DNA of 64,000 bases from Coriobacteriales bacterium. GTDB lineage: Bacteria; Actinomycetota; Coriobacteriia; Coriobacteriales; QAMH01. Location of the stretch: NCBI GenBank assembly GCA_050943615.1, contig JBMNPN010000003.1, forward strand, positions 1,058 through 65,057. The letters are read 5' to 3'. The notes beneath the pieces are model-generated. The model was given only the letters and a program-made list of their open reading frames with translations, searched no databases and was not told where the DNA came from. Of this stretch, positions 2,650-63,425 are shown piece by piece. Position numbers and translations under genes: made by a program. Numbering within the stretch: the stretch's first letter is position 1; every line of letters starts with the position of its first letter.

Positions 2650-3636
2650 TCAGCGCACCCTGCTTGCCGCCAGGTAGTGAAAGGCATCCAGACGCTCCGC
2701 TGCAATAGCCCCCCGAACAGCGCATCCAGGCTCGTCGGTATGCGTGCAATCTCGGAATCTGCAGCCCAGCGCGGCGTCGTAGACATCGGGAAAACTTGCC
2801 CTCAGGCTTGCCTCCAAATCGAGGATCTGCAGCGTCCTCAGACCAGGGGCATCGATGAGAAGCCCGGCGCCGGGAATCTGGACCATGCGACGGGCAACGG
2901 TCGTGTGGCGCCCCCTATCATCCGAGGAACGTACCGCGCCGGTCTCAAAGTGCTCGGTGCCGAGCAGCGCGTTTGCAAGAGAGGACTTGCCGACGCCGCT
3001 CTCGCCCAAGAGCATGCTCGTCGTGCCGGGAAGGCAGCGCGCACGGATGCGCTCGACCGCATCTTCGTCCAAGGCGGACACGACCTCGACAGGGATATCC
3101 GGCGCGATGCGGCCGACCCTTGCAAGCGTCTGCTCGAGCTTTTCGTCTTGGACCAGGTCGCCTTTGGTAAAGACGAAGACCGCCTGAGCGCCGCAGCCCA
3201 TGACCGCGGCCATCTGACGGACGAGGAGCCGCTCGTCGATGCCCGCCCCCGAAAGCGATTGGCATATCAGCACGCGATCCACGTTGGCGGCGAGCACCTG
3301 ACGGCGCGCAACGCGTTCGCGGCCGACGCGCTTCATGCGGCTGACCTCGGTTTTGCGCGGCAATATCTCGACGATGATCGCCTTCTCGTGACCTTCGGGT
3401 CTGCCCACGGCAACCCAATCGCCCACCGCGACGATACTGTCGTCGCGCTTCTTTATCTCGGCAGAAAGCTCGGCACGGAATTCTTCGCCTTCCGTGTTCA
3501 CCAGCGGAAAACCGCGGTCGAGAGAGGTCACGCGCCCCAGCACGCAGGCCCTCCCCTTCTGGGCCTGTTCTCCTTGCGCGCTCGAGAACGCCTCTTGCAC
3601 GGTACTCGTGCACCCAAGCTCGGAGAACGGAATCAT
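2650..3636 (-). CDS. rsgA: Ribosome small-subunit biogenesis GTPase RsgA
   Basis: Start at ATG 3636 (MIPFSELG); the upstream 110 codons of the track ORF overlap the preceding gene. OB-like N-terminus, P-loop LLGESGVGKSSL, C-terminal zinc knuckle CRFRDCTHTDEPGCAV. Confidence 0.85.
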   Translation of the reverse strand: MIPFSELGCTSTVQEAFSSAQGEQAQKGRACVLGRVTSLDRGFPLVNTEGEEFRAELSAEIKKRDDSIVAVGDWVAVGRPEGHEKAIIVEILPRKTEVSRMKRVGRERVARRQVLAANVDRVLICQSLSGAGIDERLLVRQMAAVMGCGAQAVFVFTKGDLVQDEKLEQTLARVGRIAPDIPVEVVSALDEDAVERIRARCLPGTTSMLLGESGVGKSSLANALLGTEHFETGAVRSSDDRGRHTTVARRMVQIPGAGLLIDAPGLRTLQILDLEASLRASFPDVYDAALGCRFRDCTHTDEPGCAVRGAIAAERLDAFHYLAASRVR

Positions 3637-4280
3637 TTGCCCTTCCCCTTTGCCCGGCGGATACGTCTGACGTAGAAGAACGAAACGACGAGAACTGCAG
3701 CGACAGCACACAGGACGACTCCTATTATGAGCCGCTGCTTGTTCACATGATGCGAAACCGCCTCTCCCCGATCGGTCACCTTGATGTCGGTCGCGTGCAC
3801 ATCGAGCTCGCCTTGATGCGTGCCGCAAGCAACGGAGTAGACGCCTGTCACCTCTACGGTGTCGCCCGTCATCTGATACGACCCGTAGTTCTCGATCTGC
3901 GCCGCCTGCTCGTCGGTCACGTACACGGAAATCGAGGAGTCCGAAGCATCGGCCACGCTCAGCCACTTATGGCCATCATCGGCATTGACGGCAGTATCGA
4001 CGACCTCGCCCGTAAAGCGCACAGTCGAGCCTTCTAGCGCTCGGTTGACGGAGGAGAGCGTCGAGATGCGCGTGCTGATGACGACATCGTCGTCGGTGTT
4101 GAGGGAGTTTGCCAGATCGTCGAGCGTCGCGTAGCGATCGGTCAGGGTCCCGATGGAGACCGATTCCGAATCCTCATCGGACTCCGCGGCACTGGCCGCG
4201 CCCGCTGCACATGTAAAGACGAGCGCAGATGCCAGAGAAAGGGACGCGAACGTCTTTGCTATGCGAGTCGCCCTACTCAT
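3633..4280 (-). CDS. Membrane-anchored secreted protein of unknown function (signal/TM, beta-rich OB-like ectodomain, C-terminal TM, basic tail)
   Basis: 215 aa. N-terminal hydrophobic segment AKTFASLSLASALVFTCAAGAASA. Ectodomain FTGEVVDTAVNADDGHKWLSV...YGSY...CGTHQGELDVHAT. C-terminal TM plus RRIRRAKGKGK. Start overlaps the trkH stop (ATGA, 4277-4280) and stop overlaps the rsgA start (ATGA, 3633-3636). Paralogous to the C-terminal ~230 aa of 5988..8219. Confidence 0.6.
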   Translation of the reverse strand: MSRATRIAKTFASLSLASALVFTCAAGAASAAESDEDSESVSIGTLTDRYATLDDLANSLNTDDDVVISTRISTLSSVNRALEGSTVRFTGEVVDTAVNADDGHKWLSVADASDSSISVYVTDEQAAQIENYGSYQMTGDTVEVTGVYSVACGTHQGELDVHATDIKVTDRGEAVSHHVNKQRLIIGVVLCAVAAVLVVSFFYVRRIRRAKGKGK

Positions 4281-5809
4281 TTGCGCCCGATTCTTCTGCG
4301 CGTGCGATCACGCGGGGACAGGAAGGCGAAGAACTCCACGATCATCGCGAAGGCGGCGATGAACTCGAGACGGCCGAGCCACATCTCGAAGATGTAGATG
4401 ATCTCGAGACCCTGCGGCATGCCCGGCGAGACAACGCCGAGGGAAAGCCCGGTGTTAGCCGCGACAGAGACCGAGTCGAAAATCGAGGGGAGAGCATCGT
4501 AGCCGTACGCAATGCCCGCAACCGCGCCGATTGCGTACGTGATGACAAAGAGCAGCGCGATGATCAGCGACGAGGAAACGAGCTCTGGCGTGACGAGCCG
4601 CCGCCCGCGCTGGTAGAAAAAGGTGCGGGGACGGGCGCGGTCGGGAGCGAGCGCCTCGCGCGTCGTCTGCACGATCGAACGGGCGATGATGGCGATGCGG
4701 AACGCCTTGATGCCGCCCGAGGCAGACGAGCTCGAGCCGGCGATGCACATCGCGAGTATGACCACGAACAGGGCCCCCGATCCCATCGTGTAGAGCACTT
4801 GACCGGGGTACAGCGTCGAGAACCCCAGGTTGAACGCGCCGGAGAGCACTTCGAAAAGCGCGCGCCTGACCTGCCCTCCCAACGTGGTGAAGTAGGAGCC
4901 CGAAAGGGCGAGCATCATGAGCACGACCAGGATGAGAACCCAGATGACGATCGTGCGGACCTCGATGTCCTTGAAGAAGTTCTTCGTGATGCCACGCCAG
5001 ATATCCCCGTATAGCACGAAGTTGATGCACCCGCAGGCGGCGAGCGTGAGCGCGATGATCTCGAGCGGCCAGGACTGGTAGAAAATGATGCCCGAGGAAT
5101 GGTTGCTCATGCCACCTGTCGTGAACGCGGCAGAGGCCACGACAAAGGCATTGTAGAGGGCCTTGAGTGGCGGGAGCCCCGAAATGAGAAGGGGCACCAT
5201 GCAGGCAAGCGTGCCGATTGCGACGATGACGGCAGCCACGCGGACGATAAAGCGGGAAGTCTGCTTGATCTCGGGCATGACCTGGCCCGTGCGCGCCTCG
5301 GCACGGTAGAGTGCGGCTGCAGCGGCGCCTGTCCCGAAAACCCCCAACGCCAAGGCGATGACGACGACGCCGACACCGCCGATCAGGTGCATGGTGCAAC
5401 GCCAGAAGACGAGGCACTGCGGGAGGTGGTCGACGTCGTTTGCGACCGAACAGCCCGTCGTGGTGAACGCGGAAACCGACTCGAAGAACGCATCGAGATA
5501 ATCGGAAAAGCTTCCGGAAAGGTAGAGCGGCAGGGCGCTGAACAGGGAAAGTACCAGCCAGCAGAGCCCCGTGATGACGAGGGACTGTCGCCAGGTGAGC
5601 TCGGGCTTGTCGACGCGGCAGAAGAGCAGCGCACACCCGACGACGGCGCTCACGCCGATGGAGAAGAGCAAGTTGGTGGCCGCCGCGTATTCCTGGAAAA
5701 GGAGGCCGATGATAAAAGACGGCACCATGGCGACGGCAATGAGCGCGATCAGAGCGCCGATGTAGTGCCCGATCGTGAGCCAGTCCGAAAGATGCAGACG
5801 CTGAATCAC
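4277..5809 (-). CDS. trkH: TrkH/KtrB-family potassium uptake permease (copy 1)
   Basis: 510 aa polytopic protein with repeated pore-loop motifs (TTTGCS, FTTGG, SGGIK, NTGLS). GTG start at 5809. N-terminus MIQRLHLSDWLTIGHYIG parallels copy 2. Confidence 0.85.
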   Translation of the reverse strand: MIQRLHLSDWLTIGHYIGALIALIAVAMVPSFIIGLLFQEYAAATNLLFSIGVSAVVGCALLFCRVDKPELTWRQSLVITGLCWLVLSLFSALPLYLSGSFSDYLDAFFESVSAFTTTGCSVANDVDHLPQCLVFWRCTMHLIGGVGVVVIALALGVFGTGAAAAALYRAEARTGQVMPEIKQTSRFIVRVAAVIVAIGTLACMVPLLISGLPPLKALYNAFVVASAAFTTGGMSNHSSGIIFYQSWPLEIIALTLAACGCINFVLYGDIWRGITKNFFKDIEVRTIVIWVLILVVLMMLALSGSYFTTLGGQVRRALFEVLSGAFNLGFSTLYPGQVLYTMGSGALFVVILAMCIAGSSSSASGGIKAFRIAIIARSIVQTTREALAPDRARPRTFFYQRGRRLVTPELVSSSLIIALLFVITYAIGAVAGIAYGYDALPSIFDSVSVAANTGLSLGVVSPGMPQGLEIIYIFEMWLGRLEFIAAFAMIVEFFAFLSPRDRTRRRIGRK

Positions 5810-5819
5810 GTGGCCCCGC

Positions 5820-5963
5820 CTACATCATGATCCAATGGATCAGGGCCGTGATTGCCACGAGAACCGCCAAGAAGAGCAGAATCGAGCCCAGCACCGTTGC
5901 CAGCCCGATGAAGGGGTGGAGCTTCTTTGTGCGGAAACGCTCTTGTTTCTCCGACTTGGCCAT
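5820..5963 (-). CDS. 47-aa single-TM micro-protein (below ORF-track cutoff)
   Basis: Own translation: MAKSEKQERFRTKKLHPFIGLATVLGSILLFLAVLVAITALIHWIMM*. GGAGG lies immediately upstream of the ATG. It exactly fills the gap between the two TrkH modules: 24 nt after the upstream stop, 10 nt before the downstream start. Confidence 0.4.
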   Translation of the reverse strand: MAKSEKQERFRTKKLHPFIGLATVLGSILLFLAVLVAITALIHWIMM

Positions 5964-5987
5964 GGTCCTCCTGTTCACGTTCTCGCG

Positions 5988-8219
5988 CTATTTTACCTTC
6001 TTTGCGCGCCAGCGCACGCTCCGGCGCCGTCCAAAGCGCACATCGTAGAACATGACCTGCAGCAAGAACACGACGAGCGCGCCAAAGATGAGCAGCAGGC
6101 CTATATGGAGCAAGTCGGTCGACGGATCGGCAGCGTCATCGTAGCCTGCCTGCGTGACGTTGACGGATGTCGCGTGGACCTCGAGTTCCCCGCAGTGCTG
6201 ATCGCAGCTCAGGTGATAGGTCCCCTTGATGGCGATCGTCGACCCCACATGGCCATAAGAGCCAAAGTCCGTGATCTGGGATAGCTGCTCGTTGGTGAGG
6301 TAGACACCGATCATGGCGCCGTTCTGCTTGACGTTGACCCACTTGTGGCCGTTGTCTGCCCAAACGGGGGTGCCGACGACCTCCCCCGAGAACTCGACGG
6401 GTTCTTCGTCGAGTCGATAGCTTGCCGAGAGAAGGCCCGAGACGCTCATCTCGCGATAGACGGTGTCGCTGTTCAGGGAAGGCACCTGGGACGCGGGAAC
6501 CTGGCCTTCGTTGAGATCCGACGTCGCAGTCGCCGCAGATGCAGATGTTGCGAACGCAAGCGAACCTGCAAGTGCGGCCACGAGCACGAAAGTCGAGGCA
6601 TGCTTTGCCTTCTCGGACGCCCCATTGCCATTTCGGTGCTGGCGCTTGCGGCGCCTCCACGCAAGGCCGCCGCGCGTGCTGCGCTTCTTTTCGCGTAGCC
6701 TCGCACGGGAGCTGCGGTTTGCAAAGTAACGGGGATCGAGCGAGATCAGCAGGCCGGCAATGGTGGCGATGAGAGCGATGAACTCGAGACGACCTGCCCA
6801 CATGAGCAGCACGGAGATGATCTCGAGGTCGAGTCCCATGCCCGCAGAGGCAATCCCCGTCGAAATACCGCAGTTGGCAACGAGCGAGGCCGCCTCGAGC
6901 ACTGACTGGAGCGCATCGTAGCCATGCGCGATGAAGGCCATGGCGCCCAAAGCGGTGACGAAGATGTAGAGCGAGCAGATCGTCATAGCGTTCATGGCCT
7001 CGGTTGCCGTCAGGTACTTCTGGCCGAAGTGCTCGTAGCGCACGCGCAGACGGGTCGATTGCGGCATGATCCTCTGCGTGATGGAGTAGCCTATCCAGCG
7101 CACGACCTGCATGATGCGGATGGTCTTGATGCCACCGCCGGCGGAATGTGAGCAGGTGCCGCAGAGCACGGCGACGACGAGCACGATGATCATGCCCTCG
7201 CTCGCCGAGGGCCCGAATTGCTGGGGATAGATCGTCTGCAGCCCCGTCGTCGTCGCACTCGACACCACCATGAAGGCATCGAGCGAGAAGAGCGACCCAA
7301 TCGTTGTGGAGAGGTCAGTCCTCGTCACGCCCGCAGTGAGGGCGATCGTAATCAGCACGAGCCATGCGGCATAGGTCCTGAGCTCGGAGTTCACCAAGAT
7401 TCTCTTGTACTTGAAGCGCGCCGCGTAGATCAGGATGCCAAAGTTCACCGCGCCGACGAGCATGAAGAGCATGAGGAAGACCTCGAGCATCGGGCTGTGA
7501 TAGGCGATGACGCCCGAAGTGCTGGGCAGGAAACCGCCGGTGCTCAACGCGGCGGACACGAGCCAGAACGCGTTCATGGCCGCATCCAACGGGGAAAGGC
7601 CGATAACCAAGCAGATGATGAAAAGCGCCACGAATCCGACGACGAGGTAGAACCCGAAGATGGTACCGATGCTCTTCACCGCCATGGAAAACTGGCTTCG
7701 GGAGTCGTCGCGCACGCTGCGCTTCTCGAGAAATGAATGGCTCCCCTCCCCGAACAGACCGTAGTAGAGCGCCGCGAAGACGATGGCAGATGCGCCCTGC
7801 AGGGAGAGAAGCGAGTACCACGTCGCCTGCGCATAGCTCATATGGTCGAGCTGCGTGTTGAGGACCACGCCCGTCGTGGTCAACGCCGACACGGCATCGA
7901 ACACCGCATCGAAGGGAGAATCGAATCCTCCGCCCCAGAACAGCGGAATCGCGCTCATGCAGCCGATCACGATCCAGCCGATTCCCAGCAGCAGAAGCGA
8001 GCGCCGCCTATCGAGCCTGCTCGCGGGGAGAAAGCGCAGCAGCACGCCTGCAGCCAGACAGCAGCCTGCTCCGAAGAGAAACGCGACAGCGTCAACTTGT
8101 TCGCCCAAGACAAAGGCGAGCAATGCGACGAGCAGCATGAGAAGGCCGCTCGCGATGAGCAGCAGGCCAAGGTAATGGCCTACTGTCGAGATATCCGACA
8201 AATGGAAACGCGGCAACAT
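5988..8219 (-). CDS. TrkH-family permease fused in frame to a TM-ectodomain-TM module (copy 2)
   Basis: Start at ATG 8219 (MLPRFHLSDISTVGHYLG). The track ORF extends to 8516 but overlaps the ATPase gene. The TrkH body ends ...MWAGRLEFIALIATIAG. A basic linker follows (RARLREKKRSTRGGLAWRRRKRQHRNG). Then TM TFVLVAALAGSLAFATSASA, ectodomain FSGEVVGTPVWADNGHKWVNV...FGSY...CDQHCGELEVHAT, a C-terminal TM and a basic tail. I saw no stop and no ATG between the two parts. Confidence 0.75.
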   Translation of the reverse strand: MLPRFHLSDISTVGHYLGLLLIASGLLMLLVALLAFVLGEQVDAVAFLFGAGCCLAAGVLLRFLPASRLDRRRSLLLLGIGWIVIGCMSAIPLFWGGGFDSPFDAVFDAVSALTTTGVVLNTQLDHMSYAQATWYSLLSLQGASAIVFAALYYGLFGEGSHSFLEKRSVRDDSRSQFSMAVKSIGTIFGFYLVVGFVALFIICLVIGLSPLDAAMNAFWLVSAALSTGGFLPSTSGVIAYHSPMLEVFLMLFMLVGAVNFGILIYAARFKYKRILVNSELRTYAAWLVLITIALTAGVTRTDLSTTIGSLFSLDAFMVVSSATTTGLQTIYPQQFGPSASEGMIIVLVVAVLCGTCSHSAGGGIKTIRIMQVVRWIGYSITQRIMPQSTRLRVRYEHFGQKYLTATEAMNAMTICSLYIFVTALGAMAFIAHGYDALQSVLEAASLVANCGISTGIASAGMGLDLEIISVLLMWAGRLEFIALIATIAGLLISLDPRYFANRSSRARLREKKRSTRGGLAWRRRKRQHRNGNGASEKAKHASTFVLVAALAGSLAFATSASAATATSDLNEGQVPASQVPSLNSDTVYREMSVSGLLSASYRLDEEPVEFSGEVVGTPVWADNGHKWVNVKQNGAMIGVYLTNEQLSQITDFGSYGHVGSTIAIKGTYHLSCDQHCGELEVHATSVNVTQAGYDDAADPSTDLLHIGLLLIFGALVVFLLQVMFYDVRFGRRRSVRWRAKKVK

Positions 8220-8239
8220 AATGAGGGGATTATAGCGCG

Positions 8240-10633
8240 CTAAGCAGAGCCGAAGCGGGCCAGATAGCGCGCCTCGTAGCGAAGCGCCACGTTGAACAGG
8301 AGATTGAACATAACGGTCACGAGCACGCTCAGCGCTATGGTCGTGATCACCATCTCGAAGCTGAAGGGCGTGAGCATGAAGACAAAGCCGAACGGCCCGA
8401 TGCCCAGCACCAGCCCGCCCACGATCACCACGAGCATGGTGACGCGGATGGGGTTGAAGGGAATCGAGAGCCGGATGACGAGGTTCACGCCAGAGACGCT
8501 GGCAAGGATCACGCACAGCGTGGAGAACTGGTCCTGGTCGAGCCCGACCAGAAAGCCCACGATGACGGCGATGATGACCGCGACCACGATGCTCACCGCC
8601 CCGGGAATCGCGCGTGTGACGACGTTTCTCAGGAACTTCCCGCGGATACGGTCGTGGTTGGGCTCGAGCGCGAGCACGAAGCTCGGAAGCCCGATGGTAA
8701 AGGCGTCGATCAAGGTGAGCTGAATGGTCATGAACGGGTAGTTGTAGGCGAGGATGAAGGTGAAGAGCACGGAAAACGCCATGGAAAAGAGCGTCTTCAC
8801 CAAGAAGAGCGAGCCCGAGCGTTGCAGGTTGTTGATGGAGCGGCGCCCCTCGGCCACGACGTGCGGCATGGAGCTGAAGTCGTTGTCGAGCAAGACGAGC
8901 TGTGCCACACTGCGGGCCGCGTCCGAGCCACTTCCCATGGCAACCGAACAGTCAGCGGCGTGCAGCGCGAGCACGTCGTTCACCCCGTCGCCGGTCATCG
9001 CGACGGTATGGCCCTGGGCCTGCAGCGCCTTGACCAGATCGCGTTTCTGCAGGGGCGTCACGCGCCCGAAGACGCGACAGTCACGGGCGGCGGCCTCGAG
9101 CTCTTCTTGCGTGGTGACGGTGCTCATGTCGATGCAGCGCTCCGCGTGCGGAACTCCCACCGAGCGGGCGATGTTCTCCACCGTCTCGACGGCATCTCCG
9201 CTGATGATGTCGATGCGGACGCCCTGCTCCTGGAAATACGAGAGCGTCTGCGCCGCCGTGCTGCGCACGCGGTCCTTGATAAAGACGAAGGCGAGCGGCT
9301 CCGCATTCCCGACGATGGCACCTTCCTCGTCGAAATCCTGCACGCGCGCCACCACGAGCGCGCGGCGCGTTCCGCTCAGGCGGCTGATAGCATCCTGAGC
9401 GTGCTCGAGAGAATCCGAGCCCGCGAGGACGAACTCGGCGGCGCCGATCGCGTAGTTGCCCGCCTCGCTGCCGTAGCAGATGCCCGAGAACTTGTGCTCG
9501 GAGGAAAACGGGATGATGCGCGGCTTTCCCGAAACGGCTTCGGGCGCATCGGGGGCCTCCTCGAGATTCTCGATATAGGCATGGACCGCCTTGGCCGTCT
9601 CGTTCACGCCGTTCTCCATGACCTTGTCGAGCGCGACGAGAGCATGGAGCGCCTCGGGGTAACCGACTCCCTGGAAGGGGACGACCTCGTCGACGTCCAT
9701 TTCACCGGTCGTGATCGTGCCAGTCTTGTCGAGGCAGACCACATCGACGCGTGCAAGGGTCTCGACGCAGTAGAGCTCCTGCACGAGCACGCGGTGCTGC
9801 GCCAGGCGCAGCACACTCACCGCGAGCACCGCGCTCGTGAGCAAGATGAGTCCCTGCGGGATCATGCCGACGAGCGCTGCCGAGACGTGCAGGATGGCGG
9901 TCTCTAACGTGCCGCCGCCCAAGGTGAGCTCCTTTGCCATGAGGAGCACGCCCAAGGGAACGATGAGCGTGGTCACGAACTTGATGATCCGGTTGAGCGA
10001 GTACATGATGTCGCTTGCCGCCTTCTTGTGGACCTTGGCGGCATTGTTGATCTTGGTCGCATAGTTGTCGGCGCCCACGGCAGTGACACGCGCCGTGCAC
10101 TCCCCCACGCTCACGAACGAGCCCGAGAGCATCGTATCCCCCGCCTTCTTGGAGACGATCGCGCTCTCTCCGGTGAGCAGGCTTTCGTTGGCACCGCAGG
10201 AACCCGAGAGTACCAGGCAGTCGGAGGGCACCTGGTCGCCGCGCCCGAGCGTGATGACATCGTCGAGCACGATCTGGTCGATGGGGATATCGGATTGGAC
10301 GCCATCGCGCAGCACGTGGGCGCGAGTCGCCGTCAGCACGCTCAGTCTGTCGATGGTGAGTTTGCTTCGAACCTCCTGGAAGATGCCGATGGCGATATTG
10401 CAGATGATGATGACCATGAAGAGCAGGTTGCGATACGAGCCCGTCCAGAAGATCGCCGCGGCGAGCACGATGTTCACGAGGTTGAAGAGCGTACAGACGT
10501 TGTCACGGACGATCTGGGCGATCGTGCGCGTCTTGACGTCGGCATTGACGTTGACCTTGCCCGCGGCAACACGTGCCGCGACCTCAGCAGAACTCAGGCC
10601 CTGAACTCTCGTATCTGTCCCCGTATTGCCCAT
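8240..10633 (-). CDS. Cation-translocating P-type ATPase (P2/CtpE-like)
   Basis: Motifs LLTGESAIV, DKTGTITTGEM and MTGDGVNDVLAL. N-terminal LSSAEVAARVAAGKVN. TM4 motif IPQGL rather than PEGL or CPC. Start is ATG 10633 (MGNTG) or 10651. Upstream ORF codons overlap the clpB terminator hairpin. Confidence 0.85.
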   Translation of the reverse strand: MGNTGTDTRVQGLSSAEVAARVAAGKVNVNADVKTRTIAQIVRDNVCTLFNLVNIVLAAAIFWTGSYRNLLFMVIIICNIAIGIFQEVRSKLTIDRLSVLTATRAHVLRDGVQSDIPIDQIVLDDVITLGRGDQVPSDCLVLSGSCGANESLLTGESAIVSKKAGDTMLSGSFVSVGECTARVTAVGADNYATKINNAAKVHKKAASDIMYSLNRIIKFVTTLIVPLGVLLMAKELTLGGGTLETAILHVSAALVGMIPQGLILLTSAVLAVSVLRLAQHRVLVQELYCVETLARVDVVCLDKTGTITTGEMDVDEVVPFQGVGYPEALHALVALDKVMENGVNETAKAVHAYIENLEEAPDAPEAVSGKPRIIPFSSEHKFSGICYGSEAGNYAIGAAEFVLAGSDSLEHAQDAISRLSGTRRALVVARVQDFDEEGAIVGNAEPLAFVFIKDRVRSTAAQTLSYFQEQGVRIDIISGDAVETVENIARSVGVPHAERCIDMSTVTTQEELEAAARDCRVFGRVTPLQKRDLVKALQAQGHTVAMTGDGVNDVLALHAADCSVAMGSGSDAARSVAQLVLLDNDFSSMPHVVAEGRRSINNLQRSGSLFLVKTLFSMAFSVLFTFILAYNYPFMTIQLTLIDAFTIGLPSFVLALEPNHDRIRGKFLRNVVTRAIPGAVSIVVAVIIAVIVGFLVGLDQDQFSTLCVILASVSGVNLVIRLSIPFNPIRVTMLVVIVGGLVLGIGPFGFVFMLTPFSFEMVITTIALSVLVTVMFNLLFNVALRYEARYLARFGSA

Positions 10634-10683
10634 TGTCCCATCATAGAGCATACGCGCCTTGAAGCCAGCCCTCTCAACACGCG

Positions 10684-10722
10684 AAAAAAGGGCCCTGTGG
10701 AATCTCTTTCCACAGGGCCCTT
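10684..10722 (-). terminator. Rho-independent terminator of clpB
   Basis: 13-bp stem AGGGCCCTGTGGA / TCCACAGGGCCCT, followed on the minus strand by a run of six T. Confidence 0.65.
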
Positions 10723-10758
10723 GTCGCACATGCCCTGCAATCTTGCAGAGCTCGAACT

Positions 10759-13374
<2,616 letters not shown>

Positions 13375-13440
13375 GTTCGTTCCTCCTTCTCTACCCTCAG
13401 TGGATAGTGTCTAGTTGTATGAGTTTATTAAACACCTAAT

Positions 13441-13475
13441 GACATAGAAAATCTATGTCTGTCATTGTCAAGTTT
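13441..13475 (-). promoter_or_regulatory. clpB promoter/operator region
   Basis: On the minus strand: AAACTTGACAA (-35 TTGACA at 13471-13466), then a perfect inverted repeat GACATAG-N5-CTATGTC (13441-13459). The 5' part is shared with the dnaK upstream region. Confidence 0.45.
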
Positions 13476-13624
13476 GCGCGTTGTTGCCTGCTCGTAACGG
13501 ATATGGCATTCCAGATGAGCATGCCAGCAAGAAGGCCGCCGACTCCCCGTGAAAGGGGAAGCCCAGCGGCCCTCATCGGCAGCTGTTCGATTGTCGAAAC
13601 CGGCATGCAACGCCGTGCCTGCTC

Positions 13625-14047
13625 TCAGTTGTGGAGCTCGTCGCCCCAGCTTTCCATCTGGCTTGCCTCGCTCAAGAGCTTGGAGTGGTTGGTGCGCTTG
13701 GTCAGTCCGGTGATGGTCTGGCGCATCCTGAGCTCGCGCACCTCGTCTTGGGAGGCGTCGAGTTGCTCGCGCAGGGACTTTATCTCGGACTTGAGGTCTG
13801 CCATCTGCTCGCGCAGGTCGAGGATGCGCATGACGCCCGCGAGGTTGATGCCCTCGTCCGTGAGCTGACTCACCAGCTCGAGGCGCTCGACGTCCGCCTG
13901 CGAGTACATGCGCGTGTTGCCCTTCGTGCGCTGGGGCGTCACAAGCCCCTTTGCCTCGTAGATGCGCAGGGTCTGCGGGTGCAACCCCGCGAGATCTGCT
14001 GCCACGCTGATCATGTATAGCGGCTTGTTCTTATCTGCCTTGGGCAT
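13625..14047 (-). CDS. hspR: MerR-family heat-shock repressor HspR
   Basis: HTH YMISVAADLAGLHPQTLRIYEAKGLVTPQRTKGNTRMYS. Last gene of the dnaK operon. ATG 14047 (MPKADKNK) has AGGAG 8 nt upstream; the track start is GTG 14056. Confidence 0.85.
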   Translation of the reverse strand: MPKADKNKPLYMISVAADLAGLHPQTLRIYEAKGLVTPQRTKGNTRMYSQADVERLELVSQLTDEGINLAGVMRILDLREQMADLKSEIKSLREQLDASQDEVRELRMRQTITGLTKRTNHSKLLSEASQMESWGDELHN

Positions 14048-14077
14048 CGTGCTCACTCCTCATCTTCCTTGCGCCCG

Positions 14078-15073
14078 CTAGGCGCGCACCTTGCTGTTCT
14101 TTATGCGCGTCACTTCGGCGCTTATATTCGAACGAAGCCCTTCGGCGGCGGGTGATGCCGCTCGATACGCCTCGATTGCCTTTTTCTGCTCTGCGTTCAT
14201 GGTCTTGGGGTAGGAGACCTTCACCGTCACGCGCAAGTCTCCCGAGCCGGAGCCCTTGAGCTTGGGCGCGCCCTTTCCCCTCACGCGCAGGACCTTGCCG
14301 TCTCTCGTCCCCGCAGGGATACGGAGCTTGACAAGAGAGCCATCGGGTGTCGGGATGACGACGCTCGTCCCGAGCAGCGCCTCGTCCAGGCTCACGGGAA
14401 GGTCCATGCACACATCGGCCTTGTCCCGCTTGTAGAGTGGATGGGCCTTCAGCTTCGTGATGATGTAGAGGTCGCCGCGCTTGCCGCCGTTCCTGCCATA
14501 TTCGCCGCGCCCGCGGTAACGAAGCTTGCCGCCGTCTTGGGCGCCCGCAGGCACCTTGACCGTGATGGACTCGGTCTCGCCGGTCGAGGGGACCTTGATC
14601 GTCACGCGCTTGTTCGTGCCCTTGAACGCCTCCTCGAACGTGAGGAGCACCGTCGCCCTGAGGTCACGTCCCTTCTCGGCGCGGTTGACGTTGAAATCCC
14701 AGTCGCTTCCGAACGCGCCGTCGCCGTTGCGGATGCTACTGAAGATATCAGCCCAGTCAAAATCGCCGCTTCCACCCGTGGAGGTGTAGGTGTAGGTGCG
14801 ACCACCTCCCGGCCAGCCCTGGGCACCTGACCATCCACCAGCCCGGCCGGCCTGCTGGGCATTGAAGCCGTCTACCGTGCCGAACTTGTCGTACATCTTC
14901 CTCTTCTGCGGATCAGAAAGCACCTCATATGCTTCGTTGATCTGCTTGAACGTTTCTTCATCGCCGCCCGCGTCGGGATGGTGCTTTTGCGCGAGCTTGC
15001 GAAATGCTTTCTTGATCTCGTCAGCGGAAGCGCTCTTCTTGACGCCGAGCACGTCGTAGTAGTTCTTTGCCAT
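14078..15073 (-). CDS. dnaJ: J-domain co-chaperone, CbpA-like (no zinc-finger domain)
   Basis: Start ATG 15073. J domain [30 protein letters not shown]. Gly-rich linker and C-terminal DnaJ_C domains present. No CxxCxGxG repeats anywhere. Confidence 0.85.
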
Positions 15074-15222
15074 GGCGCTTCGCCTACCTTTCATTCAAAT
15101 TTATTCTGTAAAGCGCAGGTCCCCGAAAACAGCCAACCGCGCATTTGCGGCCAAGTTGCCTCCGAGGACTTGCCTCATCGTATTCAATCATAGAGGGAAA
15201 CCCTCGTTTGGCTCTATGAGAA

Positions 15223-15257
15223 CCGAAATGCGCGCTCGGTCAAGGCACGCATTTCGG
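15223..15257 (-). other. Stem-loop in the 190-nt grpE-dnaJ spacer
   Basis: 10-bp stem CCGAAATGCG / CGCATTTCGG with a 15-nt loop and no strong U tract. Possibly an attenuator or processing site. Confidence 0.3.
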
Positions 15258-15266
15258 CATCATTTG

Positions 15267-15985
15267 CTATTCATCAGACTCCTCAGAATCCGACTTTTTA
15301 CGCGCCGGGCCTCCGACGCTGGTCACGACCATTGCCGGACGCAAGACCTTGTCGCCCATCATGTAGCCCTGCTGAAAGACCTGTACGACCGTCTCTTCCG
15401 GGACACTGTCGTCTTCAGCAGTGCTGACCGCCTGGTGCAAGTTCACGTCGAACGGCTCGCCCTGCGCCTCGATCTGCTCGACTTTGTGCTTGCCGAGTAT
15501 CTGGAGGAACTTGGTCTGAATGGCCTCGACGCCTTCTGTCAGACTGCCGCCCTCGCCGGTGTCCTTTGCATGCTGCAGAGCGCGCTCAAGATCGTCCAGC
15601 ACGGGAAGCAGGTCCTTGACCAGGCTCTCGGATGCACGGACCCGTTCGGCCTCGCGTTCGGCCGCCGTCCGCTTGCGGTAGTTGTCCCACTCCGCCTGCA
15701 GACGGGCGTAGCGATCGCGCAGATCGGTCACTTCCTGCTTGATCGCATCGAAGACGTTGACCTGGTCGTCGGCGTTCTGCTCGTCGGAGCTTTCCCCCGA
15801 AGCCTCCTCATCATCAGATGCCTCAGCCGAGTCAGTGGTATCGGCATCTTCGGGTGCGGGCGCCTCGGGCGTCTCCTCGGTGTCTTCCTGCTCGATTTCG
15901 GGCTCGAGCACCTCATCGGCCTCGGAAGAGGCGGCCTGCTCGACCGCCTCTTCGTTGCCGGAGGACTTGGCCTCCTCGGCCGACA

Positions 15986-15986
<1 letters not shown>
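15267..15986 (-). CDS. grpE: Nucleotide exchange factor GrpE
   Basis: Acidic N-terminus, then RLQAEWDNYRKRTAAERE...LLPVLDDLERAL...GYMMGDKVLRPAMV. The start shares 1 nt with the dnaK stop (TAATG). Confidence 0.9.
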
Positions 15987-18000
<2,014 letters not shown>

Positions 18001-50245: not shown

Positions 50246-50687
50246 TACCCACTCCCTTCTTGCGTGAGCTTCCTCCTGAAGCTCTTGATGCTCGGGGGCA
50301 TTATTGAAAAATCTGCCTCCGGTGCCCTTGGGCACACCGTAGAAAGTACACGCTGTCTGGAAGCTTTCCTACACCCGCAAAGGGTGTTTTATTACCATAA
50401 ACCCCAGCTCAGAGCATGGGTGTGTAATTAAGTGACGACTGAGGGGCCGATTGCGAACCTCCTTTCCCGCATTGTGCGCGAGCACGCACCATGCCACCTG
50501 GCAGCTCTAGGACCTGTGTCATGAGAACGTTTTGGGACAAAGGGCTATAGTGGTCAGGTAAACCTTGTACTCGAACCAGTTTTTCGGTTTATGTGTAATG
50601 CCATAGGGGACTCAGGCGTCGCAGAACTTTTCGCGATGCTGCGCAATAAGCGCGCGGAAAGAAGGCGTCGTCAAAGGAGCGGCGATC

Positions 50688-52250
50688 ATGAACTCGAACA
50701 ACCGCAAGGTCGCCCTTGCTCTCGGACTGACCTTCGGTGCCATTTGGACAGGAGACTCTGTCTTTCTCGAAGCGCTGGGGCCAGCGTTTTCAGTGCTCTA
50801 CATGCGCTGTGCTTCTGCTGTGCTCTACCTGCTCTTTTTGCTGTGTGCAAAACTGTTCTACGAAAAACATGAACGCGCCGCAAAATCCCGCAGCGAGCAC
50901 CTTGTTGCTTCGGGGCGCTTTCTCATTCCGAGCTGCATCATCGGTCTCTGCTGCTATATTGCCGGAGGGACTCTCATTCTCTTCAACTTCGGCCATCCCT
51001 ACCTCGGGTTTGCGCTGACCAAGATCATTGGCGCTCCACTCACCATCGGCAGCGTGTACCTGTTCGGCTCCCCAGGACGCATTAACGTCATGAGGGATAC
51101 TGCCGAAAGCGTTTCGCTCTCTTTTTTCATCTTTGCCCTTGCACGCTTTTTGATGAGCTCGACTCTTATCGACAGCACCATCTCGGCTCTTGCAAGCTTC
51201 ATCCTTCTCGCAGCGGCAACGGCATTGATAACGCGGGAGACCGACGGCGTGATGAACCTGCTGAAAGACCTCGATGCGCGCAATGAGAAGCCCGAGGTCA
51301 TATTGCGACCACTGCACAAGATCATGAATGCCCCGCTTATCGCGGGCCTTATGCTCGTGAGCCTCATGCTCGGCTTTGTTCGGCACGGCCTTGGCTCCGT
51401 GAACCCGCCCGACGCTCTTATCATCCTCGTGTTCATGACACTTACGATGCTGGGACTCTACCTGTATAAAAAGGGACTCTCCCTAAGCCTGTTCTTTCAG
51501 GTCGGTGTCGTCTGCATGACCGCCGCCATCCTGCTCGAATCGCTTCTCGCGTTGAGCAAGTTCCCACTCGAAAACCTGCTTCTGTGGTATTCGTCGGCAG
51601 CATTCGAGACGACCTCAATGATGCTGTGCATCTGGACGTCCCATAATTCCACTCGGCCCTTCTTTGCGGCCATCATCTCGCGCACCATCATGGTCTTCGG
51701 ACATCTGCTCGGGACCCTGATCATCCTCGGAGAAATGCTTCTGTCCCTCGAAGTTCCCGGAGGCGGTACCATCGCCCCCTCCGTGCTCGTGTTCATCTTC
51801 ATCCTGATGCTCCTGTTCAGCTACCGTATCCCAACGCTGCAGGTTATCTTCTTCTCGCTGCCTCCCAACGATTTCGACGCCGAAGTCTCACCGGAGGGCG
51901 AGGCTCTCAACGCCGCCGCAGAGGGACGCAAGCCCGACGAGGTGCCAAACGCCAGCGCGGTCATGAGCAAAGAGGAGCAGTGGCGCGACCACCGGCGTCG
52001 GTCCTGCCGACGGGTCGCAGATACCTACTCTCTGACCAAGCGCGAGATCGATGTGCTCTACGAGCTTTCCGAAGGACGCTCAGTAAGCTACATGGCCGAC
52101 CGCTTCGTGCTCTCCCCCAACACCGTGAAGATGCACATCCGCCACATCTACCAAAAGCTCGACGTCCACAGCAAGCAGGAGGTCATCGACATCGTCAATG
52201 CAGCTGGGGAGCTGGTTGACGACGACGACCAGCAGAAAGTTGTAGACTAA
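50688..52250 (+). CDS. Membrane-embedded LuxR-family transcription regulator
   Basis: About 400 aa polytopic N-terminal domain. C-terminal HTH LTKREIDVLYELSEGRSVSYMADRFVLSPNTVKMHIRHIYQKLDV. Confidence 0.8.
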   Translation: MNSNNRKVALALGLTFGAIWTGDSVFLEALGPAFSVLYMRCASAVLYLLFLLCAKLFYEKHERAAKSRSEHLVASGRFLIPSCIIGLCCYIAGGTLILFNFGHPYLGFALTKIIGAPLTIGSVYLFGSPGRINVMRDTAESVSLSFFIFALARFLMSSTLIDSTISALASFILLAAATALITRETDGVMNLLKDLDARNEKPEVILRPLHKIMNAPLIAGLMLVSLMLGFVRHGLGSVNPPDALIILVFMTLTMLGLYLYKKGLSLSLFFQVGVVCMTAAILLESLLALSKFPLENLLLWYSSAAFETTSMMLCIWTSHNSTRPFFAAIISRTIMVFGHLLGTLIILGEMLLSLEVPGGGTIAPSVLVFIFILMLLFSYRIPTLQVIFFSLPPNDFDAEVSPEGEALNAAAEGRKPDEVPNASAVMSKEEQWRDHRRRSCRRVADTYSLTKREIDVLYELSEGRSVSYMADRFVLSPNTVKMHIRHIYQKLDVHSKQEVIDIVNAAGELVDDDDQQKVVD

Positions 52251-59314: not shown

Positions 59315-61603
59315 CTAACCAAGGCTCTCGACTTTGCGGATCTTGCAGATGCCGTTCTTGTACGGCGCGCCATATCCCGTGACCGAAACACTCTCGTGCG
59401 GAATCAGGTTGTTCGCATTTGCCTTCCAGACTCCGTAGAGGTTGGGTGCCTCACCGTCCTGCTCGGGGAACCACCAGGCATGCTCGACATGGATGAACTT
59501 GTCGTTAACCTCTTCGGTGAGATGCGCTTTCTGCGTCATCTTTCCAAGCGGGCTTTCCACCTCGACCCAATCGCCTTCTTCGATGCCATACTTCTCGGCA
59601 GTAACAGGATTAATCGTCACGAGTGGCCAGGGGTGCAGGCGTCGCATCGTCGTGCCCTTCTGACGGTGCTCGGAATGGAACATGGAGATATGACGTCCGC
59701 CAGTGGTGTAGTACAGCGGATACTCCTCCGCCAGATCAGGTCGCGAGATATGGCTGTACTCAGGCTCTTCGTAATAAGGAACCGGCTCCTCGCCAAAGCC
59801 CGCCAGAACTGGGGACCACAGCTCGATCTGACCGGACGTAGTGTCGAACCCAGGCTTTCCATCTGGACGGAGCAGCCCCTTCTCGTATTTTCGATACTCA
59901 TAGCCCGACATCTTTGCCGGAACCGCCTTGACATCGTCGAGACCATAGCCATACGTGTCCTTGAGCATCTTGTCGAAGAACTTGTCGGGCGTATCCATGT
60001 CCTTCCAGAGTTCGGGACGCATGCGCTTGCCCATATCGATGAGGATCTCAAGGTCGGACTTGGTGTTGGGATTGTGCACTGCCTTGTTCATGGCACCGAT
60101 GAAGTGCTGGTTGCGACCATAGTTGGGCGTCACGAGTCCCTCATGTTCAGCAAAAGTCGAAAGCGGCAAAACCAAGTCGGCCAACCCCATGATCGTCGGC
60201 GTCATGAAGATGTCCTGGACGACGGTGAACTCGAGGTCTTTCATGGCCTCGTACCATCGTTTGGGCTGGTCGGCCATGCATGCGAGCGGATTGCTTCCGA
60301 TAATCCAGCACATGCGGAGCTTGTAATATTCGGGACGGTCTGCCCATTTCCCCTCGAGCCAGTTCAGAAGCGTGTCACCCTGGACGCCGCCCATTGCTGC
60401 GCCGGCATTGAACAGAGCATACTTGCCATCGAGATCTACGATGTGCTTTGCTGCCATCTCTGGGGAAATGGTGTCGGACATGTCATAGCGCCACTGGCCG
60501 ATGAAGCTCGTCGGTTTGGTGATGGTCACACCGCCCGGCACGTCGATGTATCCGCAAATAGCGACAAGTGCGAGGAAGCATTGAGCTGCCTGAGTCGAGG
60601 CTTTGGACTGGTCAAGTGCTACGCCCCATGTAGCAGTAGAGGGAGCATTCGTCGCAAACGCACGTGCGGCACCAACCAGCTGCTCGGGATCGACCCAAGA
60701 CACCTCCTGGACCTTCTCCGGAGTCCACTCTTCAACAGCTTCGGCAAGTTGATCGAATCCGTAGCACCACTTGTCGACAAACTCGTGATTGTAGAGGTCT
60801 TCTTTGATAACGACGCGCAGAAGCCCCATGCCCACCGCCGCATCGGTGCCAGGCCTGAGTTGCAGATGATACTCTGCATGTGCGCCAAGCCAGGTCAAAC
60901 GCGGGTCAATGGTGATGATCTTTGAGCCGCGCTTCATAAGATCGATAATGCTATGGCCAAAAAACCCGTCTGGACTTGAATAAAGCGGATCCTTGCCCCA
61001 TACGATAATGTACTTGGGCGCCTCCCAACCAGGATGGTCGTAGCGGTCTTCCCAATACTGCGCCCAGTCGATCTCGGGAACCCCAGCACCGAGCAGGTAG
61101 TTGGTAATCGTAGCGCGCGGACCATAGCACGCCTCGCCGGAAAATGCATAGGTGGATGCACCGTTACACGTGTTGCAGACGGCAGGACCATACACGGGGG
61201 CATACAACGTCGACTCACGCCCTGTACCAGTCAGGGTAAAGATAGTCTCCGCACCCCACTTGTCCCAGATTTCGCGAATCTTTTGCTCGAGAAGGTCGTA
61301 TGCCTCGTCCCAACTGATCTTTACCCACGCATCTTGCCCGCGTTTATCGCGGTCACGCTTCATCGGACTTGTCAAACGCTCGGGACTGTACATGATCTCA
61401 TCAAGCGCCAGACAGCGGGGGCACACGCGACCGTTGGTCACGGGATTATCGGGATCCCCTTCTACCTTGATGAGCTTGTTGTCCTTGACGTACAGAATGA
61501 GACCACATCCAACGGGGTGGTCCCCCGGCGGCGACCAGGCGCAAGTGCGCACTTTCATCACGCCATCCTCTTCGGTGACGTAGGGCTTTATTGCCTCAGC
61601 CAT
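59315..61603 (-). CDS. Cytoplasmic molybdopterin (bis-MGD) oxidoreductase, DMSO-reductase superfamily, substrate unknown
   Basis: 762 aa. AGGAGGAGG lies upstream. No twin-arginine signal (N-terminus MAEAIKPYVTEEDG). MopB-like body (ITIDPRLTWLGAHAEYHLQLRPGTDAA, IGSNPL). C-terminal beta-barrel (ITINPVTAEKYGIEEGDWVEVES). Confidence 0.88.
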   Translation of the reverse strand: MAEAIKPYVTEEDGVMKVRTCAWSPPGDHPVGCGLILYVKDNKLIKVEGDPDNPVTNGRVCPRCLALDEIMYSPERLTSPMKRDRDKRGQDAWVKISWDEAYDLLEQKIREIWDKWGAETIFTLTGTGRESTLYAPVYGPAVCNTCNGASTYAFSGEACYGPRATITNYLLGAGVPEIDWAQYWEDRYDHPGWEAPKYIIVWGKDPLYSSPDGFFGHSIIDLMKRGSKIITIDPRLTWLGAHAEYHLQLRPGTDAAVGMGLLRVVIKEDLYNHEFVDKWCYGFDQLAEAVEEWTPEKVQEVSWVDPEQLVGAARAFATNAPSTATWGVALDQSKASTQAAQCFLALVAICGYIDVPGGVTITKPTSFIGQWRYDMSDTISPEMAAKHIVDLDGKYALFNAGAAMGGVQGDTLLNWLEGKWADRPEYYKLRMCWIIGSNPLACMADQPKRWYEAMKDLEFTVVQDIFMTPTIMGLADLVLPLSTFAEHEGLVTPNYGRNQHFIGAMNKAVHNPNTKSDLEILIDMGKRMRPELWKDMDTPDKFFDKMLKDTYGYGLDDVKAVPAKMSGYEYRKYEKGLLRPDGKPGFDTTSGQIELWSPVLAGFGEEPVPYYEEPEYSHISRPDLAEEYPLYYTTGGRHISMFHSEHRQKGTTMRRLHPWPLVTINPVTAEKYGIEEGDWVEVESPLGKMTQKAHLTEEVNDKFIHVEHAWWFPEQDGEAPNLYGVWKANANNLIPHESVSVTGYGAPYKNGICKIRKVESLG

Positions 61604-61784
61604 CTTGATGTCCTCCTCCTTCTCTTTCGCTGCACGAACCTTGCATGCCGCTTACATGCAGGCAGTCAGCGGACATGCGATTAACGTGAAAATATCGAGA
61701 GAAGGAGATACGACAAAGCCACCCCAGGGGTTGTTTTTCACAAACCGAGGGTGCTGATTCGGGTTGTCTTTTCGCGTCAGAGGC

Positions 61785-61823: not shown

Positions 61824-63314
61824 TCAAGAGATGCCCCTGAGAGCGTCATCGATAAGGTCAAGAAGCTCCTCGCGTGAATGAACCTGAAGTTTGGCATAGA
61901 TTCTTCGCACGTGCCCCTTGGACGTGTTATAGGAGATGCCAAGTTCCTCAGCGATAAAAGACGTGCTTCTGCCACGTCCCAGATATGCGAGAACTTCGCG
62001 CTCGCGCGCAGTGAGCCCCGCGCGGCCGGCAAGATTGTCATATGCGAGCTTGCGCCGCTCTTCAACGTTTGTTTCTGGTCTGGATTCGGCTTGAAGCGTC
62101 TCTTCGCGGAACGTCTTTTCGAGGGCAGATTCAATAGTACGTTCATCGAGGACAAGGAACGACATCATAAGCACGAGAACTACCAGAACAATGCTGATCG
62201 TGCTCATAAACGAGAACAGCCCTGGAACGAGCGACGATGCGCAGACGACAATGAGCTGTCCAGCAGTGGTGCCAAGGGCAGATGCACCGCGACCAAAACC
62301 GAAAACACATACAGGACTCATCGTCGTCTGGCCGGCGATATTGGCAAACAGGCACCAGAGCGTGAGCACGAAAATATTGTAAGCACAGTTCACGATGATA
62401 GCCTGCAGGGAGAGAAACTCGGGACCGAGCAAAGGTGCGAGCAGCAGGCCAAGAGCAGCAACGATAATCACGGGATAATAGATTTTACTCAGGTCAAAGC
62501 GCTTCACGCTGTTTACTAGGGCAAAGACGACCACGAGAGCCGCTGAAACAATCAGGGTCACAAACACGCTCATCGCCGCCTGAGCACGCACGACTTCAAT
62601 CTCGCCTTGCAACGTGAACGTCCCCTTTGTAATCCCAACAGCAAGTGAGAAAACGGCGACAAAAAGCACACACCGCAGAAAGAACCCACGAGGAAGAAGC
62701 TTGATGGGGATCGCGTCGGTCTTGTCTATTTCACGGCTATCGACAGGACGCAGGAGCGCAAGCAACATAGCGCAGATGAGAAACAAGGAAATTACAAGAA
62801 CCGAAAGCCACCGATCGAGGCCAACGCAGACAAAGTAAAGCAGATTGGCGAGCATGCCCGAAGCAAAGGTTGTGAAGAAGACGCTCATGGAGTCAAGTGA
62901 GCTATACATATAGCCTATGCGCAGGCAGAGAAACGAAGTACCGACGCCGGTACCAATACCGAGCAGGGCAAAGGTCAAGCCATTTATCGGAAGCCCAGAA
63001 CCACCCATGAGAAAGAAAGTGCACGCAGCAGCAAGCACTGACATGGCAGGCACAAGCGGGCCGCGGCTAATGGTAGGTTCGACGCGCCGCGAAAAAGCAC
63101 CGCAGAGAATGAGGACAATGGTAAGCGGAACACCCGAATACAGATAGAGCAGGTTATTGGCATTTCCCTGCAGCAGTTCCTGCGAAGACGGAACAACTGC
63201 ACTTCCGCCCATCATGAAGAGAATCCAAGCGCTGTAGAAGCCGAGGCTGCAATATTTGAGCCCCGGCCATTGGCTATCGATTCGCTCAAGACTCCTCTTC
63301 CACAGCTCAGCCAC
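61824..63314 (-). CDS. Membrane-embedded LuxR-family transcription regulator
   Basis: GTG start 63314. About 400 aa polytopic domain. C-terminal HTH LTAREREVLAYLGRGRSTSFIAEELGISYNTSKGHVRRIYAKLQV. Confidence 0.8.
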   Translation of the reverse strand: MAELWKRSLERIDSQWPGLKYCSLGFYSAWILFMMGGSAVVPSSQELLQGNANNLLYLYSGVPLTIVLILCGAFSRRVEPTISRGPLVPAMSVLAAACTFFLMGGSGLPINGLTFALLGIGTGVGTSFLCLRIGYMYSSLDSMSVFFTTFASGMLANLLYFVCVGLDRWLSVLVISLFLICAMLLALLRPVDSREIDKTDAIPIKLLPRGFFLRCVLFVAVFSLAVGITKGTFTLQGEIEVVRAQAAMSVFVTLIVSAALVVVFALVNSVKRFDLSKIYYPVIIVAALGLLLAPLLGPEFLSLQAIIVNCAYNIFVLTLWCLFANIAGQTTMSPVCVFGFGRGASALGTTAGQLIVVCASSLVPGLFSFMSTISIVLVVLVLMMSFLVLDERTIESALEKTFREETLQAESRPETNVEERRKLAYDNLAGRAGLTAREREVLAYLGRGRSTSFIAEELGISYNTSKGHVRRIYAKLQVHSREELLDLIDDALRGIS

Positions 63315-63425
63315 GTTGTCTCATACCTCTTCTCTTGTAAGGAATTGCAGCGTCTCGCCTTTCGAAAGTGCAGGTCATTTATATCAATTCGATTGTAGTG
63401 GGTATTCAACCGTTGAAATAGTACA

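Follow-up and report, generated by a model that had tools for sequence, protein, structure and literature searches.

A stretch of 64,000 nucleotides (nt) from a Coriobacteriales bacterium (assembly GCA_050943615.1, contig JBMNPN010000003.1, positions 1,058 to 65,057 of the forward strand), hereafter the window, was analyzed. Two modules built on the K+ channel protein TrkH lay side by side on its minus strand, and in both of them TrkH was linked to a membrane-anchored protein whose ectodomain was modelled as an oligonucleotide/oligosaccharide-binding (OB) fold. In one module this partner of 215 amino acids (aa) was encoded by a separate gene directly after trkH, and in the other a paralog of it was fused in frame to the TrkH body. 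A gene for a very small peptide with a single transmembrane (TM) segment lay between the two modules. The genes and their parts, in window coordinates, were as follows.

8240-10729, minus strand: P-type ATPase gene, 829 aa, the first of a tight gene string that ran from 10729 to 2650
5988-8219, minus strand: TrkH–OB fusion gene, 743 aa, with ATG at 8219, stop at 5988 and a Pfam TrkH match
6732-8219, minus strand: TrkH body of the fusion, residues 1-496, placed by profile alignment and motif coordinates
6600-6731, minus strand: basic cytoplasmic linker of the fusion, residues 497-540, with a conserved GG-x-AWRRRK motif
6534-6599, minus strand: internal signal-peptide-like hydrophobic segment of the fusion, residues 541-562, ending in A-S-A, a probable signal peptidase I site by its motif
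6144-6461, minus strand: OB-fold ectodomain of the fusion, residues 587-692, with Cys672, His675 and His682 (five strands, model confidence pLDDT 91-97)
5991-6113, minus strand: C-terminal TM anchor of the fusion (residues 703-725) and basic cytoplasmic tail
5820-5963, minus strand: gene for the 47-aa single-TM peptide, with a GGAGG Shine-Dalgarno sequence and a third-codon-position GC content (GC3) of 0.81
4277-5809, minus strand: unfused trkH, 510 aa, placed by Pfam and TIGR00933 matches and by motifs
3633-4280, minus strand: gene for the 215-aa OB partner, placed by its open reading frame (ORF), the paralog alignment and an AlphaFold2 (AF2) model
4188-4280, minus strand: cleavable signal peptide of the 215-aa partner
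3765-4085, minus strand: OB ectodomain of the 215-aa partner, with Cys152, His155 and His162
3669-3731, minus strand: C-terminal TM segment of the 215-aa partner, followed by a basic tail
2650-3636, minus strand: rsgA, 328 aa (TIGR00157, E=6.8e-43, above cutoff)

The fusion ORF started 20 nt after the stop of the ATPase gene, the 47-aa ORF started 24 nt after the fusion, and trkH began 10 nt beyond the 47-aa ORF. The genes trkH, the 215-aa OB gene and rsgA were joined by ATGA overlaps, the ATG of the OB gene overlapping the trkH stop at 4277-4280 and the start of rsgA overlapping the OB gene stop at 3633-3636. An initial annotation of this DNA had reported both TrkH modules, the 215-aa gene and its overlap with trkH, and all of these were reproduced at the same positions in the ORF check, to which the 47-aa single-TM ORF (5820-5963) and the overlap between rsgA and the OB gene were added. 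A perfect TATAAT (8227-8232) was found 7 nt upstream of the fusion ATG, with no Shine-Dalgarno sequence there, and this hexamer may represent a leaderless start or an internal promoter directly after the ATPase stop.

Both TrkH paralogs were recognized by Pfam model PF02386 (cutoff 27 bits), the unfused protein with 128.3 bits (E=3.9e-37) and the fusion with 72.2 bits (E=4.1e-20) over residues 103-487. The NCBIfam TrkH model TIGR00933 matched the unfused TrkH with E=1e-64, and the scores of the two paralogs (219 and 136) were below its cutoff of 331, which indicated a divergent branch of the family. The two bodies were 33% identical to each other (E=5e-71). No match to the fusion was obtained by phmmer against the PDB, while its profile matched V. 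parahaemolyticus TrkH (3PJZ/4J9U) with E=6e-48 over residues 6-476. The AF2 model of the fusion reached a pLDDT of 82 and a pTM of 0.83, and in the Foldseek comparison its TrkH part was aligned to 3PJZ with TMt 0.86 and an rmsd of 3.1 over 495 columns, the extra N-terminal D0 helices included; KtrB scored lower. The P-loop glycines of the fusion were found in TTTG (7869-7889), STGGF (7530-7547), TTTGL (7239-7256) and NCGI (6864-6881), and the corresponding motifs of the unfused TrkH were TTTG, TTGG, NLGF and NTGL. The intramembrane loop was kept in both paralogs (GGGIK in the fusion, SGGIK in the unfused TrkH), and so was the arginine of GRLEF (D4M2). From these motifs, both TrkH paralogs look functional.

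The 215-aa protein was aligned to fusion residues 581-732 with 41% identity over 154 residues (E=3e-29), and the motifs previously listed as shared by the two ectodomains were present in this alignment. A word-indexed search for the OB family gave only four clusters, and an exhaustive profile search was used instead, by which 1003 representatives were detected at E≤1e-3 and 646 at E≤1e-10. Most members were 165-330 aa long and had a hydrophobic segment at the N-terminus and a TM at the C-terminus. The family is thus large and uncurated, and it occurs in medically relevant gut Eggerthellaceae. In the AF2 models the ectodomain formed a barrel of five strands, a short helix lying between the third and the fourth, with pLDDT 86 for the 215-aa protein alone and 91-97 inside the fusion. 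Foldseek against the PDB returned 120 matches at E<=1e-3, and all of the matches listed were OB domains; among them were those of AspRS, LysRS, AsnRS, ExoVII, Stn1 and RPA32 (E ~1e-5), with TM-scores of ~0.5 when normalised by the query and up to 0.66 when normalised by the target. For the ectodomain, no model of Pfam or NCBIfam scored above cutoff, also when 131 family members were scanned. The best sub-threshold Pfam match of the window protein was Stn1 (E=0.023), E values of 2e-4 to 4e-3 were reached in 1-7 of the 131 members, and the weak matches in a few members were to tRNA_anti_2, tRNA_anti-like and DUF4131. The modelled ectodomain is a generic OB fold without an informative relative, and the structure search that had been proposed for it returned this generic fold only.

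Three members of the family were peculiar. P0282 and P0312, from Eggerthella timonensis and Eggerthellaceae bacterium 3-80, were labelled 'hydrolase' in their NCBI records; a nuclease or 'hydrolase' reading was rejected, since no hydrolase family was matched and the label came from these two records only. P0262 (307 aa) matched positions 1-215 of the AcrB/RND model (E=3e-38) in addition to the OB-ectodomain profile, and it is either an assembly chimera or a case of the OB domain on a second transporter type.

Residue conservation was counted over the 131 OB-family members and over 46 fusions. W106 and G139 were invariant in the 131 members, E92 was present in all members except one (130/131), and position 160 was Asp in 126 and Glu in 3. 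The family signature was C-x2-H-x6-H. Its three residues C152, H155 and H162 were found together in 116 of the 131 members and were lost jointly in 13, with Cys replaced by Asp, the first His by Gln, Asn or Glu, and the second His by Thr, Arg, Val or Ala. The equivalent C672, H675 and H682 were invariant in the 46 fusions. In the AF2 model C152 ended strand 4, H155 was located in the loop between strands 4 and 5, and D160 and H162 were alternate residues of strand 5, so that by the register of the hairpin the side chains of the triad and D160 could share one outward face. These results suggested that the surface Cys-His-His(-Asp/Glu) cluster is a candidate site for a metal or a thiol-reactive ligand.

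Since the neighbouring split pair overlaps by ATGA, a single insertion or deletion could yield a fusion of the kind seen here, and the source is a metagenome-assembled genome (MAG); the possibility was therefore considered that trkH had been joined to the OB gene downstream of it by a frameshift error in sequencing or assembly. The homolog survey spoke against it. An identical 743-aa protein was present on four contigs, and 45 further clusters of 700-825 aa showed the same full-length architecture at 38-49% identity, with 92-100% of the fusion length aligned (67% in one). Some of these clusters contained hundreds of member sequences, and the few named records were Coriobacteriales and Coriobacteriaceae MAGs; the exhaustive profile search with the OB ectodomain added fusions of 718-822 aa. 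The reading frame across the linker (6600-6731), where the initial annotation had seen the risk of an error, was also sound: GC3 was high in frame throughout and remained the highest of the codon positions, and the linker itself was about 45 residues long with a conserved motif. By the survey and the in-frame GC3 a frameshift artefact was excluded, and its probability is considered negligible. The TrkH bodies of the fusion type were 46-51% identical to each other and only 32-33% identical to the unfused paralog from their own genome, which indicated that the duplication and the fusion are old.

The gene order was compared in the window and ten further loci with different flanking genes (11 loci in total). 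The OB gene directly followed trkH in 11 of 11 loci, its start overlapped the trkH stop in most of them, and the OB partners of the other loci were 28-49% identical to the window protein. A fusion gene was present upstream in L001 and L004 and missing in L008-L014. The argument drawn earlier from the split and fused pair, by analogy to a Rosetta stone, was strengthened in this way, as the fusion turned out to be a conserved paralogous lineage and the ectodomain family to be strongly enriched beside trkH in loci with unrelated surroundings. The gene rsgA adjoined the module in 9 of 11 loci, while fusions were seen only with TrkH. This gene, which encodes a ribosome-biogenesis GTPase, is regarded as a co-transcribed neighbour in the K+ channel operon and is not counted among the parts of the proposed complex.

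A small single-TM ORF also accompanied every trkH of the 11 loci. The 47-aa peptide of the window had a basic N-terminus and a TM extending to its C-terminus, and no Pfam or NCBIfam family matched it. In ten loci the ORF encoded 43-48 aa and was located just upstream of trkH, and in L012 it encoded 92 aa and was located just downstream. Because of this recurrence in 11 of 11 loci, the TM peptide of about 45 aa is probably a third subunit. The repeated set of small ORF, trkH and OB gene pointed to an ancestral unit of small peptide, TrkH and OB protein, and the window is this unit plus a fused paralog. L012 (3833-6900) was a variant module with a TrkH of 590 aa that carried a long Arg/Gly-rich tail, the 92-aa small-TM ORF after trkH, and an OB protein of 299 aa in which Cys, His and His were jointly lost once more.

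No RCK gating subunit had been noticed near the modules, and none was found here: the flanks of the 11 loci and the ten large window ORFs scanned contained no TrkA_N or TrkA_C (RCK) domain, a result of local scope. A tblastn search with an approximate KtrA query gave no hit either, and a regular expression for the Rossmann motif of TrkA had no match in the window.

The topology of the fusion could be deduced from its parts. The C-terminus of TrkH is cytoplasmic, as seen in the solved structure of the V. parahaemolyticus protein. In the fusion it led into a strongly basic linker and a hydrophobic segment of 22 residues, after which came the OB domain, another TM and finally a basic tail, an order that places the OB domain outside. 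The internal segment had the features of a signal peptide, namely an n-region that is basic, an h-region that is hydrophobic and a c-region in which a helix breaker is combined with small residues at positions -3 and -1 (38/46 fusions). At its outer end Ala occupied -1 in 44 and -3 in 40 of the 46 fusions, and Pro was found at -5 or -6 in 35. The pattern P-x(1,2)-[AVS]-x-A occurred at this end in 38 of 46 fusions, corresponding to 1.8 per 100 residues against 0.19 elsewhere (~10-fold). The cleavage-site picker favoured A-x-A by design, and only the position of the proline and the enrichment test are independent of it. The hydrophobic helices otherwise varied freely among the 46 fusions, and the conservation of the Pro/Ala-x-Ala end on a drifting helix argues for probable cleavage rather than for a plain extra TM. 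In P0093, a fusion homolog of 714 aa, a lipobox (LFGC) stood in place of A-x-A, and this replacement suggests that its OB part may be releasable as a lipoprotein. Judging from these motifs, signal peptidase I probably cuts the fusion. The initial proposal that the former signal peptide had become an extra TM was thus upheld as far as the outside position of the OB domain is concerned, while a permanent extra TM became doubtful given the retained cleavage region of signal peptidase I type.

It is also possible, though clearly the less probable case, that the fusion stays intact and that the segment serves as a permanent eleventh or twelfth TM, so that TrkH and the OB domain would be covalently joined in the fused paralog and form a non-covalent complex in the split one. 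The topology fits either way. The single ORF was kept in about 45 clusters, and this persistence points to selection for covalent linkage or, at the least, for co-synthesis; the conserved linker motif GG-x-AWRRRK suggests a function of its own, and the segment of the window lacks the helix-breaking proline. On the other side, nothing about a plain TM helix would require Pro at -5/-6 and Ala at -3/-1, yet 38 of 46 fusions retain this pattern at the outer end of a helix that otherwise drifts, and one homolog has exchanged it for a lipobox. Should cleavage be correct, a signal-peptidase motif inside a polytopic protein would make the fusion an unusual bacterial membrane polyprotein.

Based on these observations, a three-part TrkH complex with an outer, beta-subunit-like OB partner, specific to the Coriobacteriia lineage, is proposed with moderate confidence. 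The OB subunit would be anchored by its C-terminal helix, with the barrel close to the membrane on the outer face of TrkH, where it might act as a beta-subunit that stabilises or tunes the channel and thereby K+ flux. The Cys-His-His site may couple the channel to an external ligand, either a metal ion or a thiol-reactive or redox signal, and the small peptide would pack within the membrane. The split form, with a separate, translationally coupled OB gene and a cleavable signal peptide, would be the older and widespread one. In the fused form the OB subunit would be carried on the cytoplasmic C-terminus of TrkH through the basic linker and the signal-like segment, which is expected to insert with the N-terminus inside and the C-terminus outside and so to place the OB domain outside. 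A cut by signal peptidase I would then leave TrkH with a retained C-terminal anchor together with the same mature OB-TM protein as in the split module, and both modules would end as an identical 1:1 complex of TrkH and OB subunit. The pTM of the whole fusion (0.83) and the pLDDT of its C-terminal TM (96-97) in the AF2 model are an indirect hint at confident packing of the last helix against TrkH.

Several points weigh against the proposed complex. The evidence for a contact between TrkH and the OB protein is indirect, and a metal site is proposed from the kinds of residues, their covariation and the register of the strands. No ligand can be read from so generic a fold, and the covariation of the triad may be traceable to a single subclade. 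The gene rsgA was linked nearly as tightly as trkH, so that membership of the operon by itself is no proof of a complex, and the absence of TrkA holds for the flanks and window ORFs scanned. A mirror-tree comparison of TrkH and OB divergence gave a Pearson coefficient of 0.73 and a Spearman coefficient of 0.13; it was not robust and was left unused. As for cleavage, A-x-A is fairly common in Ala-rich sequence, and the c-region of the window's own fusion has no proline.

Alternatively, the OB protein could be an independent cell-envelope protein, for instance one that binds a wall polymer, nucleic acid or metal or acts as the annotated 'hydrolase', and could share a housekeeping operon with trkH and rsgA without touching TrkH. 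The resemblance of the fold to nucleic-acid-binding OB domains, the NCBI name of two members, the tight linkage of rsgA and the junction of the domain to an AcrB N-terminal fragment in P0262 are in line with such a role. Nevertheless, conserved in-frame fusions recurred with TrkH and none was seen with RsgA, the adjacency to trkH persisted where rsgA was absent or had moved (L011, L014), and the OB gene overlapped trkH at its start. No hydrolase family was matched, and no OB fold of the staphylococcal-nuclease type was found among the top 50 matches listed. An independent envelope protein is regarded as improbable.

Most bacteria take up K+ mainly through TrkH and KtrB, whose pores are understood to be controlled from the cytoplasm by nucleotide-binding RCK rings; to our knowledge, the RCK ring is regarded as universal for TrkH/KtrB. 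The window proteins share the pore fold of TrkH-TrkA and KtrB-KtrA (3PJZ, 4J9U, 4J7C), with TMt 0.82-0.86 to TrkH and with the filter glycines, the gating loop and the D4M2 arginine conserved. They differ in their partners, which are cytoplasmic RCK rings in the known systems and here an extracytoplasmic OB protein and a TM peptide with no linked RCK gene. No solved TrkH, KtrB or HKT chain carried an OB domain in the Foldseek comparison with the PDB.

The closest likeness, in architecture only, was to KdpFABC, in which a TrkH-related pore (KdpA, a channel-like protein of the K+ transporter superfamily to which TrkH also belongs) is likewise combined with an outward-facing single-TM subunit and with a second subunit that is only a very short single-TM peptide. 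KdpC spans the membrane once, faces the periplasm near the selectivity filter and was proposed to act like a beta-subunit by raising K+ affinity, and KdpF is a lipid-like single spanner (PMC6255902). In the window the likeness extended to a P-type ATPase gene immediately upstream of the fusion. However, the pore here is TrkH and not KdpA, no similarity to KdpC or KdpF was detected by Pfam or NCBIfam in the OB protein or the 47-aa peptide, and the neighbouring ATPase is not KdpB and is missing from most loci. It scored 124.6 bits against the kdpB model, far under the cutoff of 527.9, and was fitted better by type II/III models; a related ATPase was present upstream of the fusion also in L001-L003 and in none of L004-L014. 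Membership in KdpFABC was rejected on the missing KdpC/KdpF homology and the ATPase score. KdpC itself has an N-terminal TM anchor and is not an OB fold.

Among OB proteins, the N-terminal DUF4131 of ComEC and CusF are membrane-flanked or periplasmic examples, and CusF shows that an OB barrel in the periplasm can carry a metal site, although it was not among the top Foldseek matches listed. The window domain differs from the named OB families in being extracytoplasmic with a C-terminal TM anchor and in its own C-x2-H-x6-H signature. The beta subunits of BK channels and of the Na,K-ATPase are small anchored subunits, mostly extracellular, that tune a cation pore or pump. An uncleaved fusion would share the TM-ectodomain-TM topology of BK beta; sequence and fold are unrelated to both, and the comparison is an analogy only. 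In the literature searched, nothing connected TrkH to OB folds, to Eggerthella or Coriobacteriia, or to accessory subunits of this kind, in agreement with the earlier impression that the architecture was undescribed, and no Pfam or NCBIfam model covered it. The new part is a set of conserved accessory subunits on a known channel, not a new category.

If the complex is confirmed, TrkH would gain, through the extracytoplasmic subunit and the KdpF-like peptide, a second layer of control or stabilisation that faces outward, and an assembly of the KdpA/KdpC/KdpF type would have arisen independently on the TrkH scaffold. A more far-reaching version, which we consider rather unlikely, would hold for Coriobacteriia in general, human-gut Eggerthellaceae included: the TrkH channel would consist of three subunits and receive its gating or tuning from outside, the Cys-His-His OB beta-subunit would replace or supplement the RCK ring as a metal or redox sensor, and the fused paralog would be made as a membrane polyprotein, from which signal peptidase would release the channel and its subunit. 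The split and fused forms side by side provide a ready experimental handle.

Beyond the ATPase gene, a heat-shock cluster was located on the minus strand at 10759-17944, consisting of clpB (10759-13374), a MerR/HspR-type regulator gene (13625-14056), dnaJ (14078-15094) and dnaK (15986-17944), and the clpB/MerR/dnaJ neighbours recurred in L001 and L013. Farther away, at 50607-52250 (plus strand), 59315-61651 (minus strand) and 61824-63320 (minus strand), the window contained a region with two large proteins, of provisional start position, bearing C-terminal LuxR/GerE domains and a molybdopterin oxidoreductase gene, which one of the two adjoined.

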